From: a virus
DNA length: 64,000 nt
IMG/VR virus record: IMGVR_UViG_3300021963_000069
Location: 29,551-93,550 of that record
Strand: one strand, 5' to 3'
The stretch's first letter is position 1; the number at the start of each line of letters is the position of its first letter. The translations under genes and the position numbers were made by a program. Shown one piece after another: positions 5,405 through 59,097 of this stretch. Under the pieces are notes generated by a model. It made no database searches, was not told the DNA's origin, and was given only the letters and a program-made list of their open reading frames with translations.

Positions 5405-8400
5405 CTTACCGCAATTGTTCTGAGTTCTTTAATTCTTGGTGGATATGCCTGATTGGTTCCGGACATTACGATTTTAATTACATATCCATTAAATAATCCA
5501 AGATTATCTGCGGTAAATTCATATTCTTTAAATTGATTTTCTAAACTAGAACTTACAAAAGTATCCGATCTTCCACTATTTTTGGAGGGATTAACGACAG
5601 AATATCCTGCTGAAGTAGTGTATGATAAGTTATCATAACCAGGAAATAGTTCAAATGATTGATCGATTTCGCTCGAATCCGGTCTAAACAAACTATAAAG
5701 AACTCTAAAATCAGCAGATTCGTGGCGATATGCCGACAAGATTACTTTTAGTGATGTTGCGGGTTGAACTAGATTTACTGCTCTTGAAACATATGATGCA
5801 GAATGTGGATCATCTAGTATTGAATTGACTCTTCCATCTAATGTGTAATCAGAAATTGGACTATCCAAACGACTAGAAATAAACTCGGTAAATGCCGTAT
5901 CTAAGAATAATATTGGAGATAAATTAGAATCTGTCGTATTAAAGGTGATTCCGGTCGTGAATGATTTATTTCTTGGTAGAGCATCAAGATATTCCATTTC
6001 ATTTTCTTTGGAACATACAAGTCTTACTGATCTTAATGTATTTAATGAGTTTAATTGAATTGGCTCGTATCCATTATCTAGGAATGAGGTCTCATTTCCA
6101 CTTATACTTGTTCCAGTAACCGATCTAATTACTGCCGAAGTTGATGTAGAAGATCCGGGAGTATTAAGATCATATGTGGGAACTATTGAACTATATAAAA
6201 TATTCTCGGTGGCGAGAACCTTTGAACCTCCTAATTTTGACTCGGAAGCGAATGATAATTGTGGTGCTCCAGCAATGGGTCCATCAGTATTGCTAGTACC
6301 TCTATCAGTTCCGTTTGCTGCTCTATTAACTTTAAGATAATATCCATCTATTCCAATATTTAAATCATCAATATCATGTGTTGTATTAATTCTTCGTAAA
6401 GAAACTCCATTTAACTCATACTTATATAATAGGGCATCTTTCTCATGAGTGATTGAAATTGTAGAATCGATACCTCTAACAATAGTTCCTAGTGATCCAC
6501 TACCAACGGACCCATAACTAATAATCTCATTTCCAATCTTCACATATCCTGGATATGTTGGAGTTACAGTAATTCCTTCAAAAGTACCAAAGTTTGATGT
6601 GTTTCCAATTGAAATTGATGTAGATGTTGAAGGTAAAGAAGAAGTAATCGGAACTGGTGCATTGCTCGAAATAACATCACTTATTCTAAGTTTATTCGTG
6701 TTTCCATACATTTGATGATCAAAATGTTCGACTCTAACATAATTTCCTGAATATTCATTTGTTGAATCCGAACGAGTTAGAACATTAATTCCAGTCACAG
6801 GAACTATTGTATTCGAATTATTATAATAACTTAATTCATAATCAGTTGTTGTACCTGTGGCAAATACTCCCTGAACGCCTTCCAAGTATAAAGTATTGAT
6901 ACTATTACCATCTCCGGTAATAGTAATTCTTGCATCACGCCCGCGTACTGAAGTTCCAGTTCCTACCGTAGAAGTTACAATACCAACAACATCTCCTTTT
7001 TTATAACCATTTCCCCTATTTACAATTACCGGTGTACCAGTAATTGTTCCATTAGTGGCAGTAACATCTAATACGAGTCCAGAACCATTTCCAATAATAT
7101 TATAAGTTTCTACATAAGAATCAGTAACGTAATTGCTACCACCTGTGGTTAGTCCCACACTTGATACTGAACTTCCGGTTCCAACAACATATCCATAAAC
7201 ATAAGTCTTAGATTTATCAACAATTTTTCTACCCACACTTAAATCAGCAATTAATGCTGTGTCTGCTGTTGTGGTAATTCCTAGAGTTGTTCTTTTTGGT
7301 AGAGTTGTTAGTGGATTTTCAGATAGTCTCTGTACATAACCATTACTTTCATCTAATGTTGGATTATTAAAAAATACAGTTCCCGTGGTTGAAGTAAATT
7401 TAGCCTTATAAAGTTTAAACTTAAGATCCTGATATTGGTTTGCGGTCCATATGGATCCATTTTGTGATTTAAACAGACTTCCCATCGAAAATTGCTTGGA
7501 ATATGTAACTGCATCTACATCTGGAAGTGATTTTGTATTTACGGTTTTTTCGCCCATAACCGCAGTCCACATTTCATACTGATCGCTATTTTCTGAAATA
7601 ATTACAACTGCATATTCTCTTCCGGGTGGAAGATAAATTGGTTCTTCAAATGTAACCTTAGTAGCAACAGAAGCATCGGTTGAAGTATTAACTTGATTGG
7701 GTCTTAACGTAACAGGAAATCCAATTACAGTTCTTGTGGGAGTTCCCAGTTCAACAGTTCTAATTTCAACTTTTACTGGAGCATTTCCTGGGTCTTTTTT
7801 AGCAAAAAATAAATCAACAGCAGTTAAAAATGCACCATTTACATCATCATTTGATGATGTGGGTGAAGGAGCCTCTACATTTCCACCAACAACAAATGAT
7901 TGTGCGAGAGGATCAACAAATCTTTGAACTGTTGTTCTTGTATGAGTGTTTATCGTTGTCTGAGAAGTTGTGGTATTTGTTGTAAGATTTGTAACTGTTT
8001 TTGTTGTTAGATTGGATGTTGTTGCGGTTACGGTATTTTCCCACTGTTCTAATGTTCCATCTGAATTATAATTTGTTTCGGTAGATGAATTGTCCGTACT
8101 TCCAGGAAGACCAGGATTATTTGTGGAACTTGAAGTCAATTTAAATGTTTTAGTTCCTGTGGCAATTCTTACAGTTGGAGGTGGAATTGTATTTGGATCT
8201 CTCAGATAAAATGCTCCAATTAAATCTCCAAAATTATCGGAAATTAATCTTAAATCACTTACATATGCCACAGCACCGCTAGACTGTCCAACTAATTGCA
8301 TACCCTTAAGCAAATAACCGGAATATTTTCCTTGTGCTTCTTCCGACAGAGAAGCAGTATCAATATTCAAAATTTTCGATGATTGACTATACTCAGATGA

Positions 8401-29304: not shown

Positions 29305-30004
29305 ATCCTGCTTCTTTTGCGTCTAAACAGAAAGATACGTCCTCTCCACACATATCCTGAACCTCTCCGGATTCAAAAACTTGCATTTTTGGAGCAAACC
29401 ATGGATATTTCATTTCGGAGTGTTCAAAAACTCCTTTTTTAATGAGTAACCAACCAAAACCGGCATAATCCACCGTAAATGGTTTGCGTCTTTTGCTGAT
29501 ACTATCAACTGTTTCGTGATTCATGACTCCACCATTATTGCGGAAGTCATCTTCTTCCATCCAGTGAGCGACAGATGTGGTATGACCGTCTTCTGTGGCG
29601 TACCAACCGGAGGCAATATCCTTATTCATTAGAACAAGTTGCCAAAACTTTTCACTACTGAATACAATATCTGAGTCAATCCATAATTGCCAATCATAGT
29701 TTAGTTTTCCGTCCCATGGAAGTTGATCCGGACCTCTCAGAACATTTGCTCCAAGGCATTTGCAACGAGCAAAGTTTACCATGGAAGAATAGTCTTGAGA
29801 AATCTGAATACTTGCTCCGGACTGAACTAGATCAAAGCAGAGTTGTACAAAATTCTTAAGATAGGTATAGGATACTCCTCTTCCGGGTAAACAGAATACT
29901 ATTGATTTTCCTTTTACTATTTCTTTTGCTAAGTTATAGTCCCATTCTGGTTGACTATCTGATGTAACGGGCGATTTTGCCTTTACTGTGAATCCTTTTG
30001 CCAT
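29246..30004 (-). CDS. GT-A glycosyltransferase-like conserved cyanophage protein
   Basis: ARCKCLG, LWIDSDI (DxD motif), GFGWLLIKKGVFE, GEDVSFC, VGHEK. Confidence 0.8.
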   Translation of the reverse strand: MAKGFTVKAKSPVTSDSQPEWDYNLAKEIVKGKSIVFCLPGRGVSYTYLKNFVQLCFDLVQSGASIQISQDYSSMVNFARCKCLGANVLRGPDQLPWDGKLNYDWQLWIDSDIVFSSEKFWQLVLMNKDIASGWYATEDGHTTSVAHWMEEDDFRNNGGVMNHETVDSISKRRKPFTVDYAGFGWLLIKKGVFEHSEMKYPWFAPKMQVFESGEVQDMCGEDVSFCLDAKEAGFEIWCDPRIRVGHEKTRII

Positions 30005-51243: not shown

Positions 51244-51462
51244 TTATTTGATATGATCCTTAAGACTATAAAAGTATTCCAGCCTAGCGATGTCTTCCTG
51301 TAGTCTAACTCCCTTGGTATAACGGACAAAGTGCCTCTCAAGAGTGAGTTCCTCTTCTGAAAAGGGAATATCATTCTCTCTCTTGAACCTGATGTTCTGT
51401 GCGAATTGTGTAATGTGATTTACAGGTAAATTAAGAAACTCCTCGTAAGACATTTGAGACAA
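51244..51462 (-). CDS. Hypothetical protein
   Basis: 72-aa co-oriented ORF. Confidence 0.55.
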   Translation of the reverse strand: MSQMSYEEFLNLPVNHITQFAQNIRFKRENDIPFSEEELTLERHFVRYTKGVRLQEDIARLEYFYSLKDHIK

Positions 51463-53849: not shown

Positions 53850-54056
53850 TTATTCGGGTGTTTCATCACTCCACCAATACAATAGTTTATCACCTTTCGC
53901 AGAAATATTTAAGTGGAAGATGCGATTATCTTTAGTATAACAACCAATCCAGAGTGATTTTTCATTCATCTGCTCCAAATGAAACATCTTCACATCCTCC
54001 AACACAATCTCATCAGGATTTCGTGTTTCCTCAAGTGGAAAGTCGTTTCTATTCAT
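53850..54056 (-). CDS. Hypothetical protein
   Basis: NPDEIVL..V.MFHLE.M....WIG; TTGACG-17-TATAAT upstream. Confidence 0.7.
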   Translation of the reverse strand: MNRNDFPLEETRNPDEIVLEDVKMFHLEQMNEKSLWIGCYTKDNRIFHLNISAKGDKLLYWWSDETPE

Positions 54057-54114
54057 AATGACTTGTAATTTTCATTATTATACTATCAAGACCCAGTTTC
54101 GTCAAGAGGTTTTT

Positions 54115-54837
54115 TTATTCTTCCTTTTTCCATCCTATTCTTCCCCTTTCCCATCCATCGCCAGGATGTTCTCTACTTCTTTTTTCTATTTGTCCGTCAT
54201 TCCACCATTTTAATCCTTTTCTTACCTCGCTCATTTTTTTTCGTGATTCTTCAGTGTGGTTAAAACCTAAACTATATTTGTTTCCTTTCATTATTTCACT
54301 TTGTTTTTTTCTGGTTTCTTCCGTGTGTGATTTACCATAAAATGGATTATTTTCTCCTTTCCTTGCTTCACTTATTTTTCTTCTGGTTTCTTCTGGGCGA
54401 GATTTACCATAACAATGATGGTTTTCTCCTTTATTGGCTTCACTTATTTTTTCTCTGTTTTGTTTTGTGTGTGATTTACCATAAAATGGATTATCTTCTC
54501 CATTATATTTACCTTTCCTTGCTTCACTCATTTTTCTTCTGGTTTCTTCACTTGGAACCCACCCAGAAGGACCATCACCACCATCACTTCTATTATGAAG
54601 AATACCAGTACCTAAATCTTTTCTACCAAATACAGCAACCATATATTCTTCGTGCTTGAATGCTTCTTCTTCGGTAAGATTTTGTTTGAGGAAGATTGCT
54701 CTTGATTTATCTTTTGGTTTGTTACAAGGTTTTCCACTATTATCATTAATTCTATTTCCACTCCCTTTTCCAATATAATAAGGAGTTCTATCTTCCCGCA
54801 AATATGCGTAAGTATAAAATCTGTTAGGATTTACCAT
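54115..54837 (-). CDS. GIY-YIG-type (Seg-like) homing endonuclease with NUMOD3 repeats
   Basis: FYTYAYLRED.TPYYIGKG..R; repeated NPFYGKSHTEETRKKxSE; WWNDG tail. Confidence 0.88.
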   Translation of the reverse strand: MVNPNRFYTYAYLREDRTPYYIGKGSGNRINDNSGKPCNKPKDKSRAIFLKQNLTEEEAFKHEEYMVAVFGRKDLGTGILHNRSDGGDGPSGWVPSEETRRKMSEARKGKYNGEDNPFYGKSHTKQNREKISEANKGENHHCYGKSRPEETRRKISEARKGENNPFYGKSHTEETRKKQSEIMKGNKYSLGFNHTEESRKKMSEVRKGLKWWNDGQIEKRSREHPGDGWERGRIGWKKEE

Positions 54838-54883
54838 TTCTATTCTACTTGGACGGCATTACTATTTATAAGAGTTTATAATA

Positions 54884-54943
54884 GAAAAGGTGCCCCAAGA
54901 GCACCTAATCTTATCTGTAGAGATTGCCGTCCAAACAGACACT
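54884..54943 (-). ncRNA. Candidate small RNA complementary to the leader of the downstream endonuclease mRNA (module 1)
   Basis: AATAAATA (54946-54953), hairpin displaying TTGGACGGCA, AGATT, terminator AGGTGC-loop-GCACCT-TTTC. Confidence 0.6.
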
Positions 54944-54951
54944 CTTATTTA

Positions 54952-55173
54952 TTATACTTCACCACCGAACAAAGAAAAAAGAAAGTACCATACTACGCCC
55001 AAAAGACCCAAAAGAGATGGAATAAACACCATCCAACCAAAGATGATTGGATGTGTCGCAAGAAGATAAACGACGAGTATAATCAATAATACTGCGAAAG
55101 GTAATGTGAGTGTTGCTTTAATTTGAGGAGAAATCATTTTAGTTTCTTTATGTTGTTGATTATCTATTTTCAT
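54952..55173 (-). CDS. Two-TM small membrane protein
   Basis: Two hydrophobic stretches; start probably MISPQ. Confidence 0.65.
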   Translation of the reverse strand: MKIDNQQHKETKMISPQIKATLTLPFAVLLIILVVYLLATHPIIFGWMVFIPSLLGLLGVVWYFLFSLFGGEV

Positions 55174-57099: not shown

Positions 57100-57662
57100 T
57101 ATGAAAAGTTGAAATGTAATTTACTATAATAATTTAGGTAGCACGATTTGTCCTTAAGTTCTACAAGTGATGATGGTAAAAGATGACCGTATTTCTCAAA
57201 GAAATCTTCTCTGGATACAAATCTCACTCCCATTAACATCCAAATACCAAAATACGAATGAAACTCACGAACGGCACGATACTCTTGAGAATTGACCGGT
57301 TTATAATTTTGTGGATGAGGAGCATTCTTATCATAATCATCCCCATAAGGAATACTTTGAGAACATAGAACACAAAGAGTTCTGCCGTTCCCAGTCCCAA
57401 AGAAATCACCCACAAGAAATCTCATATACTCCTCTTCGGGTATTTCACCATAAGTTTCATTATACTCCTTCATACAATAATCAGCAATCAACTGATATGC
57501 TTGTTTGGTTTTTTGCGGAAGGATTTTGTTGAACTTATTTTCTTCTTTGTTATTCAGGTATGCGAATGCTTCTTGATATGTTTTGAGTGCTTCTCTTTGT
57601 TCGGCAATTTCAAAAAGTTCATCTGGATAGTTTTCCATTATAGTGCCTCCAAGATAAATCAA
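57099..57662 (-). CDS. Hypothetical protein (start probably MENYP)
   Basis: GGAGG precedes the internal ATG; ends in HFNFS. Confidence 0.65.
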   Translation of the reverse strand: MIYLGGTIMENYPDELFEIAEQREALKTYQEAFAYLNNKEENKFNKILPQKTKQAYQLIADYCMKEYNETYGEIPEEEYMRFLVGDFFGTGNGRTLCVLCSQSIPYGDDYDKNAPHPQNYKPVNSQEYRAVREFHSYFGIWMLMGVRFVSREDFFEKYGHLLPSSLVELKDKSCYLNYYSKLHFNFS

Positions 57663-57696
57663 TTATACACCAAAAACCACTCCTTGTAAAGTACCC

Positions 57697-58620
57697 TTAT
57701 GATAATCTAACTCTTTTGGAAGTGTCTATTCCTCTTTTCTTTTGATATTTCGTAAGTGGTCCGGCAGTTGTAACATATTCAGTTTCAAGGCACATCCACT
57801 TCTGTGAGTTTGTATTTTTTGCTCCTTTTTTACCATCTTCACTCATTTTTTCTTTTGTTCTTTCGTGTACTCCTACACCAAGTTCATAAGTTTTTTTACC
57901 ATTTAATTTACCACTTATTTTACCACCCTTTCTACCGTTTTCACTTTTTTGTTCTGGGGTTAATCCAAAAATCCCTGTTTTATTTTCTTTATGTTTTTTA
58001 CCAGTAATTTTCCCACCTATTTTACCACCTATTTTTCCTCCTTTTTTACCACTTATTTTACCATTTTCACTTCTTTGTTCTGGAGTTAATCCAAAAATCC
58101 CTGTTTTATTTTCTTTATGTTTTTTACCAGTAATTTTCCCACCTATTTTACCATCTTCCGTCATTTGTTCTTTTGTTCTTCCGTGTATTCCTACACCAAG
58201 TTCATAAGATTTTTTACCACTTATTTTACCATTTTCACTTCTTTGTTCTGGGGATATTCCACAAACTCCTACACCAAGTTCTTTTGTTCTTTTACCACCT
58301 ATTTTAGCAGCATTACTGCAAATTTGTAAAGAGATTACTCCACCACAACTTTCATTAAGACACCATTTATCAGTATTATAAAATGGTTTTATCAATCTCT
58401 TTTCAACTTCTTGTGCTTCTATCCAACCTTCGTCGGTGAAATCAAAAAGTTCTAATATCTGTTTCTTTGGAGTATAAAAATTCCAACACCACTTATGTGT
58501 TTTTGGAGAACCCATATAATACTCATTATACCTTTTTTCCTTATGAACTCCATAATAATAGTAAGGAACTTCCTCAAAGGTAATCTTGTATATGTAAATT
58601 CTTGGACTTTGTGAAGTCAT
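57697..58620 (-). CDS. GIY-YIG-type homing endonuclease with Gly/Lys-rich repeats (true start MTSQSPR)
   Basis: IYIYKITF...YYYGVH...YMGS; E..LI; CLNE; repeated GIFGLTPEQRSENG; TATAAATA at 58647-58654 places the start at 58620. Confidence 0.85.
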   Translation of the reverse strand: MTSQSPRIYIYKITFEEVPYYYYGVHKEKRYNEYYMGSPKTHKWCWNFYTPKKQILELFDFTDEGWIEAQEVEKRLIKPFYNTDKWCLNESCGGVISLQICSNAAKIGGKRTKELGVGVCGISPEQRSENGKISGKKSYELGVGIHGRTKEQMTEDGKIGGKITGKKHKENKTGIFGLTPEQRSENGKISGKKGGKIGGKIGGKITGKKHKENKTGIFGLTPEQKSENGRKGGKISGKLNGKKTYELGVGVHERTKEKMSEDGKKGAKNTNSQKWMCLETEYVTTAGPLTKYQKKRGIDTSKRVRLS

Positions 58621-58657
58621 AGTTCTACTTTGTGTTTGGTCTGTATTATTTATACGA

Positions 58658-58711
58658 GAAAAGGTGCCCGAAAGCACCCAATCTCTGCTTCTGCGACCAA
58701 ACACAAGCATC
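58658..58711 (-). ncRNA. Candidate small RNA complementary to the leader of the downstream endonuclease mRNA (module 2)
   Basis: TATAAATA (58714-58721), segment TTGTGTTTGGTC, AGATT, terminator GGTGC-loop-GCACC-TTTTC. Confidence 0.6.
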
Positions 58712-58716
58712 ATTAT

Positions 58717-59097
58717 TTATAATGCCTCCAATTCATCAGCAAGTGCTAAAATGTCCTTAATATTTACAACACCAATTCCGTGGTCTCCATCTATATGGTA
58801 GTTATCATACCCAAGTTCTTCTACTAATGTTCTCAAAACTGCTCCATATTCATAAAAAACTTTTGCTTGAATAGGGTCTCTACCCTCACGAATAAGTTTT
58901 CCCAAAGTAGGAGAACCTTCTGCGATATTTCGTGCTGCTGATACACATTTTTGTGCGATATTATTCATTTTCAGTTTGCGGAGTTTCTGTGTTGCGTATG
59001 CTGTGAGTTCTCTTTTTGATTTTCTCAATTCTTCTACTTCCTCTGGATTAAGTAGAAACCCATCTGCGATATTTCCGTATTCTTCGGTCATTTCCAA
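58717..59097 (-). CDS. Hypothetical protein
   Basis: Co-oriented ORF; ends in LADELEAL, similar to 55530-55748. Confidence 0.6.
   Translation of the reverse strand: MEMTEEYGNIADGFLLNPEEVEELRKSKRELTAYATQKLRKLKMNNIAQKCVSAARNIAEGSPTLGKLIREGRDPIQAKVFYEYGAVLRTLVEELGYDNYHIDGDHGIGVVNIKDILALADELEAL

Follow-up and report, generated by a model that had tools for sequence, protein, structure and literature searches.

An inverted-repeat control head before homing endonuclease genes of T4-like cyanophages: a probable, portable T4-type lock with hallmarks of a small-RNA gene

As selfish genes, homing endonucleases can persist only if they are kept nearly silent, and the T4 hairpin that is bypassed by a late promoter is the textbook case of their control. 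For I-TevI, this type of lock with its nested late promoter is an established mechanism; for I-TevII, I-TevIII, segB, and Aeh1 mobE it has been either demonstrated or inferred, and the T4 genes e, soc, and 49 share it, as set out in section 12 of PMC2988022 and section 29 of PMC3014915. Dassa et al. (2009) described conserved TATAAATA hairpins in the 5' untranslated regions (UTRs) of free-standing GIY-YIG and Vsr nucleases at "fractured gene" loci of ocean metagenomes and, in the part of their paper devoted to these hairpins, read them as translational locks (PMC2677866). Here, we analyzed a stretch of 64,000 nucleotides (the window), which corresponds to positions 29,551 to 93,550 of the 93.5-kb IMG/VR record IMGVR_UViG_3300021963_000069 and belongs to a T4-like cyanophage whose closest isolate is Synechococcus phage S-SRM01 (Kyanoviridae). 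Two of its nuclease genes stand behind a compact control head (modules 1 and 2), in which the two arms of an inverted repeat enclose a late promoter and an intrinsic terminator.

Antisense control of a selfish element is known from IS10/Tn10, where the loop of RNA-OUT first meets the 5' end of RNA-IN. RNA-OUT covers this 5' end together with the ribosome-binding region and blocks ribosome binding, acting in trans and scaling with copy number (PMC5006887). From the T4-like cyanophage S-PM2, the antisense RNA CfrI has been described, a non-coding RNA associated with the gene of a homing endonuclease (PMC2984593, section 14).

The control head of module 1 comprises 117 bases on the minus strand (54837-54953), to which all coordinates of this module refer, and sits between a 73-aa open reading frame (ORF; 54952-55173) and the 240-aa nuclease ORF (54115-54837). 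It starts with a late-promoter-like box, P1 (AATAAATA, 54946-54953; family consensus N[A/C]TAAATA), which is the first conserved position of the cassette. Five bases and then a G at 54940 lead into the stem-loop SL1 (54913-54940), identified by its fold and by covariation, whose stem GUCUGU/ACAGAU is encoded by GTCTGT at 54940-54935 and ACAGAT at 54918-54913, and whose loop holds a tag, TTGGACGGCA (RNA UUGGACGGCA), at 54934-54925. SL1 is followed by AGATT (RNA AGAUU) and by an intrinsic terminator (54885-54906; terminator scan and covariation), a G+C-rich hairpin with an 8-bp stem, a UUG loop and a U-run that reads AGGTGCTC-TTG-GGGCACCT plus TTT from 54906 to 54885. Downstream, and between the arms, lies the box P2 (54863-54870), a perfect T4-type late promoter TATAAATA; four bases later comes the leader complement of the tag, TGCCGTCCAA (RNA UGCCGUCCAA, 54858-54849), and then the 3' portion of the leader, GTAGAAtagaa (RNA GUAGAAUAGAA), with the ATG at 54837. 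An inverted-repeat search delimited the arm pair at 15 nt, with the 5' arm UCUGUUUGGACGGCA at 54925-54939 and the 3' arm UGCCGUCCAAGUAGA at 54844-54858, the latter beginning at the predicted +1 of P2 and extending to -7 from the AUG. The arms are 66 nt apart, and the two non-Watson-Crick positions among the 15 bp are G-U in the sense RNA. By our own arithmetic, a perfect 10-mer inverted repeat within two windows of ~40 nt has a chance expectation of about 0.001. A transcript running from the purine at P1 +6 to the U-run would be a ~56-nt RNA (54885-54940), as predicted from the sequence. A previous sequence-only reading of the window had proposed these elements, and all of them were recovered base for base on the minus strand; its claim that a second module shares the scaffold with an unrelated but again complementary tag pair proved correct as well, module 2 (58620-58720) carrying the arms CTTGTGTTTGGTC and GACCAAACACAAAG.

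The pairing of the arms is specific and has been maintained over many sequence changes. Among 68 distinct modules we counted 40 different 9-nt arm cores, and the cognate duplex between head and leader reached a mean of -22.1 kcal/mol versus -9.4 kcal/mol for non-cognate combinations, with the cognate leader being the best partner for 58 of the 68 heads. The three heads and leaders of this genome gave -23.4, -19.6, and -22.7 on the diagonal of a 3x3 matrix and -1.8 to -14.7 off it, and when the tag of module 1 was compared with the 93.5-kb genome fragment, no match other than its own leader appeared. On an unrefined MAFFT alignment, the arms exceeded 500 of 500 shuffles and every slid control. 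The predicted helices of 53 distinct arm pairs contained 776 Watson-Crick and 37 G-U pairs, and an A-C mismatch never occurred in them (an ungapped-diagonal count, which is confounded by bulges, was not used for this purpose). As a G-U pair in one strand is an A-C mismatch in the other, the retention of the former and the absence of the latter locate selection at the sense RNA.

SL1 and the terminator covary in the same way: 92.5% of their cells are paired versus 74% in shuffles, none of 500 shuffles was as high, and slid controls displayed 37-57%. The 5' half of SL1 covaries both with its own 3' half (C-G 45, U-A 18 at one pair) and with the leader just 5' of the start codon (C-G 47, U-A 18), which argues that both alternative structures are maintained. 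Folded in cis, the arm pair has a probability of 0.96 in 68 of 68 modules, whether the transcript begins at P1 or at a point 80 nt upstream of it, which makes the cis lock the thermodynamically dominant fold, and the late mRNA that would start at P2 is on its own almost unstructured (-4 to -6 kcal/mol). The six bases facing the 5' end of this mRNA are exposed in the loop of SL1 (unpaired probability 0.77), and the 5' half is held in the stem (0.13). YUNR loop motifs and the orthogonality of pairs within a genome were also considered and proved uninformative. We regard the masking helix as very probably real and selected.

The limits of the complementarity follow the promoter boxes closely. Counted on the ungapped diagonal, leader pairing amounts to 100% at P2 +6 to +14, 87% at +5 and 21% at +4, and head pairing goes from 3% at P1 +6 to 53-100% at +7 to +21, the dips at P1 +7-10 being bulges that an ungapped count misses. 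RNAduplex runs on sequences extended into the promoter regions yielded long spurious A/U-rich extensions and were discarded. T4 late promoters lie about one helical turn upstream of the transcription start (PMC2988020); given this spacing, the complementary stretch sets in with the very base at which the inner transcript is predicted to start and, on the outer transcript, one base downstream of its predicted start. At its other end it stops 4-7 nt before the AUG and covers the purine-rich ribosome-binding stretch. P1 is invariant and keeps a fixed spacing of 5 nt from SL1, the 25 nt on its 5' side are mostly under 0.3 bits, and it fits the late consensus of cyanophages, NATAAATA (PMC2984593). 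The motif ATAAATA occurs 25 times in the window versus about 35 expected, with a coding-strand bias of 23:2, often 20-35 nt before start codons and in front of ordinary genes too, which fits a use as late promoter in this phage.

The head belongs to a sizeable family that is tied to nuclease genes. A covariance model built from the head only (P1 through terminator) revealed three copies in this genome, six in S-SRM01, three in phage B3, and three, five, and three in three complete IMG/VR genomes (11 in total), each credible match being followed by P2, a cognate leader and a nuclease ORF. The model found no copy in S-PM2 or T4, and its match in Syn9 was rejected, being a generic promoter-terminator-promoter stretch from which the arms are missing. 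Across 1.56 Mb of related contigs, nhmmer detected 199 distinct heads. Of these, 196 are linked to P2, a cognate leader and a nuclease ORF, and the remaining three comprise one truncated remnant (L228), one decayed locus (L169) and one slicing artefact. Retrieval by another route gave the same picture: when relatives of both window nucleases were gathered from IMG/VR by protein similarity alone, 65 of their 66 distinct upstream regions carried the inner TATAAATA, and all 65 of these (65/65) the outer N[A/C]TAAATA at the expected distance. A scan with the terminator-plus-P2 string alone returned 66 distinct contexts. The outer box is present in 65 of them, and apart from a few decayed loci they possess a matching leader together with a nuclease ORF; the single exception was a chance match in a giant-virus contig. 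Across the whole genomes, the 1.56 Mb and the terminator-plus-P2 scan, an intact scaffold was never found without a nuclease or without a matching tag; an equally frequent occurrence without them is among the outcomes that the sequence-only reading had named as speaking against its proposal. Its proposal, a lock-and-key family of small RNAs, holds in so far as a constant scaffold with a covarying address is present (196/199 heads, at least 40 tag cores); a separate RNA and an action in trans do not follow from this, since the same complementarity works in cis. Rfam returned no match for the whole window at gathering thresholds and nothing beyond sub-threshold microRNA-hairpin noise for the module at permissive ones.

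The remnant at L228:11256-11307 (minus strand) has an intact P1 box and SL1 and a truncated terminator, followed by no P2, leader, or nuclease, and resembles the scar of a deletion in which the nuclease was lost.

Members of the family differ in both address and cargo. S-SRM01 has homologues of both modules with other arm sequences, which are again complementary. The third full copy of this genome (genome positions 7352-7418, in L109, minus strand) fronts a NUMOD3-bearing nuclease whose best match is a PHROG homing-endonuclease family, its assignment to HNH coming only from a weak PHROG match. At least four or five N-terminal types of nuclease are found behind the head; Pfam supports HNH, HNH_3/NUMOD4, and NUMOD3, and the other types comprise one weak, sub-threshold Endonuclease_7 match and two types matching nothing. 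Nearly the same head and tag (CTTGTGTTTGGTC) precede different nuclease types in S-SRM01 (51247-51309, L112) and in the window (58659-58720), which indicates that the head is a module exchanged at the start codon. In the segment L109 (genome 1-9000), two more nuclease genes were observed behind a plain hairpin, at about 788-820 and 2936-2983 on the minus strand; both hairpins have TATAAATA in the loop and no outer box, i.e., the classical form of the T4 lock.

Head and nuclease of module 1 arrived as one block. The IMG/VR relative L250 (contig 3300024346_000109, 2501-2916) represents the empty site, where homologues of the unassigned 73-aa ORF (at 86% identity) and of the ORF downstream (at 53% identity) are adjacent with a stop/start overlap, TGATG. 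It lacks the RNA head, the nuclease and the sigma-70-type promoter at the 3' end of the cassette (TTGACG-17-TATAAT, 54077-54105, minus strand; promoter scan), so that all three must have come in together; whether RNA and gene are gained jointly was a check suggested along with the sequence-only reading, and at this site the answer is yes. By comparison with L250, the insert in the window measures ~930 nt (roughly 54025-54958, minus strand) and contains the head, the nuclease, this promoter and a new start for the downstream gene. It begins a few bases before P1, and family-wide conservation starts exactly at P1, matching the insert edge; the last two codons and the stop of the 73-aa ORF fall within the inserted cassette. 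The cassette of module 2 also ends with a sigma-70-type promoter (TTTACA-17-TATAAT, 57662-57690, minus strand), just before the next gene. Judging from their position, such promoters would restart the neighbouring gene, upstream transcription presumably being blocked by the terminator of the cassette.

Two further features of module 1 were noted between terminator and start codon. A 13-nt filler (TATTATAAACTCT; 54871-54883, minus strand) separates the terminator from P2, resembles a degenerate second TATAAA box and is present only in a subset of the family, e.g., in L012, L019, L077, and L078. A second inverted repeat joins 54833-54847 with 54877-54891 (13/15 complementary), by which the terminator tail plus filler (ACCUUUUCUAUUAUA) could pair with UAGAAUAGAAAUGGU, start codon included, in read-through transcripts only; this pairing is not part of the minimum-energy fold.

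How the head would work can be outlined as follows, with both transcription starts, the termination, the existence of the small RNA and the repression all predicted from these elements. The 5' arm (54925-54939), located just upstream of the terminator, would engage the initial 14-15 nt of the nuclease leader in a helix of 15 bp and hide its purine-rich stretch up to -7. Transcripts carrying both arms, be it by read-through from upstream genes or from P1, would fold into this helix and stay untranslated, and transcripts starting at P2, which have no 5' arm, would be translatable. Transcription from P1 would start one base ahead of the tag-displaying SL1 and run into the terminator, giving late in infection a discrete RNA of ~56 nt, whose loop could base-pair with the P2 mRNA at its 5' end and dampen the translation of the nuclease in trans, comparable to RNA-OUT and RNA-IN of IS10. 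The tag would likewise be present in the 3' end of those early mRNAs of the upstream gene that stop at the terminator. Late transcription of the head would be sensible if an antisense RNA is needed once the late nuclease mRNA appears. P1, the tag-displaying SL1 and the internal terminator are together the marks of a small-RNA gene, and a plain lock leaves them unexplained. We consider this combination of a cis lock with a late, discrete antisense RNA of ~56 nt reasonably probable as a whole. Taken by itself, the production of a discrete short RNA is likely, whereas we see even chances for its regulating in trans; the narrower statement that the head is a real gene for a late RNA of ~56 nt, and that this RNA acts in trans to repress the mRNA of its own nuclease by pairing of loop to 5' end, falls just short of even and is put forward tentatively.

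The most serious competitor is a pure cis lock as in T4, with the terminator as an extra insulator and with P1 and SL1 yielding no functional regulator, any short RNA being a by-product. Cis action is the published mechanism for I-TevI, I-TevII, I-TevIII, segB, and Aeh1 mobE, as described in section 12 of PMC2988022, the plain TATAAATA-in-loop hairpins before two other nucleases of this genome manage without P1, and the high probability of the arm pair in cis agrees with it. The same explanation leaves open why an invariant P1 should stand at the 5' edge of the mobile block at its fixed distance from SL1, why SL1 is kept through compensatory changes despite competing with the lock, and why pairing begins one base after the predicted P1 start; in addition, with a terminator placed between the arms, most transcripts on which a lock could act would be lost. 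For these reasons we think it unlikely that the lock is the whole story. Several observations nevertheless weigh against an active trans RNA. The T that opens the T4 consensus is retained in P2 and missing from P1, so that P1 may be the weaker promoter; a stoichiometric repressor acting in trans would thereby be limited, and less of the head than of its target may be produced. Neither the whole genomes searched by covariance model nor the 1.56 Mb revealed an orphan head whose target lies at a distance, and since head and target are always adjacent, trans action is not required. The U-run comprises only four U, and termination may thus be partial. The AUG and the last 6 nt of the leader are unpaired and a strong Shine-Dalgarno sequence is missing, hence the masking of initiation is deduced from the position of the helix. 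RNA data come from assembled metatranscriptome contigs, in which DNA carry-over is possible; these cover head and leader at 85-95% likeness, but their ends lie at variable sequence (flank, tag, 13-nt insert) and not at the predicted RNA ends, and one contig (X3 record 21) bridges the terminator and P2, meaning that read-through RNA or DNA exists there.

Two other explanations give the inverted repeat a different task. A short RNA with a positive role, its duplex making the mRNA 5' end double-stranded and protecting it against 5'-end-dependent attack by RNase E/J, would account for a duplex that begins at the predicted first nucleotide of the mRNA. It is very improbable in our view, as the duplex also covers the ribosome-binding leader to between -4 and -7 and would block initiation, the nearly unstructured late mRNA offers no inhibitory structure to relieve, and the known controls of homing endonucleases are all negative (PMC2988022). 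Alternatively, the repeat might act on DNA, be it as an operator bound by a protein, as a cruciform or as a site at which the mobile cassette recombines; I-TevI does repress its own late promoter via an overlapping operator (PMC2988022, section 10), and the repeat flanks P2 here. Yet the asymmetry between G-U and A-C described above reflects strand-specific pairing at the RNA level and disposes of DNA-level readings, arm sequences differ freely among copies fronting the same nuclease type, and the arms are 55-80 bp apart, which makes an action on DNA barely credible.

Concerning the proteins behind the two heads, the 240-aa product of module 1 is a homing nuclease with a GIY-YIG-like N-terminus and four NUMOD3 repeats. 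Pfam NUMOD3 matches it in four stretches (E 1.5e-38), and it also matches PHROG "homing endonuclease" families and the DNA-binding domain of I-TevI (1i3j). Its N-terminus, FYTYAYL...PYYIGKG, contains a GIY-YIG-like motif that is statistically not secured: Pfam gave no GIY-YIG match, and a profile of 27 N-domains had a "GIY-YIG domain-containing protein" as best PDB match at a marginal E of 0.065, over Y-x-Y...YxGKGxxxR. An AlphaFold model of this domain was unusable (pLDDT 44.6). The homologue in S-SRM01 (QPX48079, L001:3039-3797) is annotated as "translation initiation factor 2", probably a mis-annotation due to its lysine-rich repeats. The nuclease of module 2 (57697-58620, minus strand, 307 aa) starts with IYIYKITFEEVPYYYYG and ends in lysine/glycine-rich repeats, so that the two nucleases indeed differ in their C-terminal repeats, as had been noticed from the sequence alone. 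It has many relatives in IMG/VR and no match at all in Pfam or PHROG, and may represent an unannotated nuclease family.

Regardless of the antisense RNA, the family constitutes a more elaborate and fully portable version of the T4-type lock, in which terminator, masked leader, late promoter and downstream restart promoter travel together with the nuclease. According to section 29 of a 2010 review, T4 had no trans-acting regulatory small RNA whose function had been characterised (PMC3014915), and in the portion of a 2025 review of phage small RNAs considered here, CfrI is the sole entry connected with a homing endonuclease. If the head is released as an RNA, it would fill this gap; if this RNA also represses its own nuclease mRNA in trans, it would represent the first class of trans-acting regulatory small RNAs in T4-like phages, a large natural antisense family with a constant scaffold and freely reprogrammable addresses (at least 40 tag cores), carried on mobile nuclease cassettes. 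Such a family would likewise supply RNA-leader pairs by the dozen, naturally orthogonal and built on a single scaffold, for use in the engineering of translational control. As the family is present in isolated phages (S-SRM01, B3, and B23), the question is directly testable.

In comparison with the systems known so far, the lock itself, a masking helix placed around a late promoter, is the one known from T4, and the P1 box, the covarying SL1 and the terminator are additions to it. Like the T4 lock, the head would regulate a homing endonuclease, its helix would hide the ribosome-binding region of transcripts started upstream (the AUG itself being unpaired here), and TATAAATA lies between the arms, so that late transcripts, with a start placed by the T4 rule, would be free of the 5' arm. 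Unlike in T4, the arms lie far from each other with an intrinsic terminator between them, a covarying stem-loop of its own holds the 5' arm in its loop, and a second conserved late-promoter box precedes this stem-loop, with the start codon left unpaired. The passages on regulation in PMC2988022, PMC3014915, and PMC12197685 make no mention of an upstream promoter, a presenting stem-loop or an internal terminator. The hairpins of Dassa et al., compared by their description, are presented in that part of the paper solely as cis elements, with no upstream promoter, terminator or separate RNA mentioned (PMC2677866). CfrI differs in its size of about 225 nt and in being transcribed opposite to the endonuclease gene and psbA, and the covariance model found no copy of the head in S-PM2. 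With IS10 the head shares the association with a selfish element and the exposure, in the loop of a stem-loop, of the bases facing the mRNA 5' end, and the predicted RNA would resemble RNA-OUT in having a terminator and a covarying structure that presents the pairing bases. The difference lies in the origin of the complementarity: RNA-OUT is copied from the opposite strand of the same DNA, whereas the head lies on the same strand as its target, directly upstream, and owes its complementarity to an inverted repeat.

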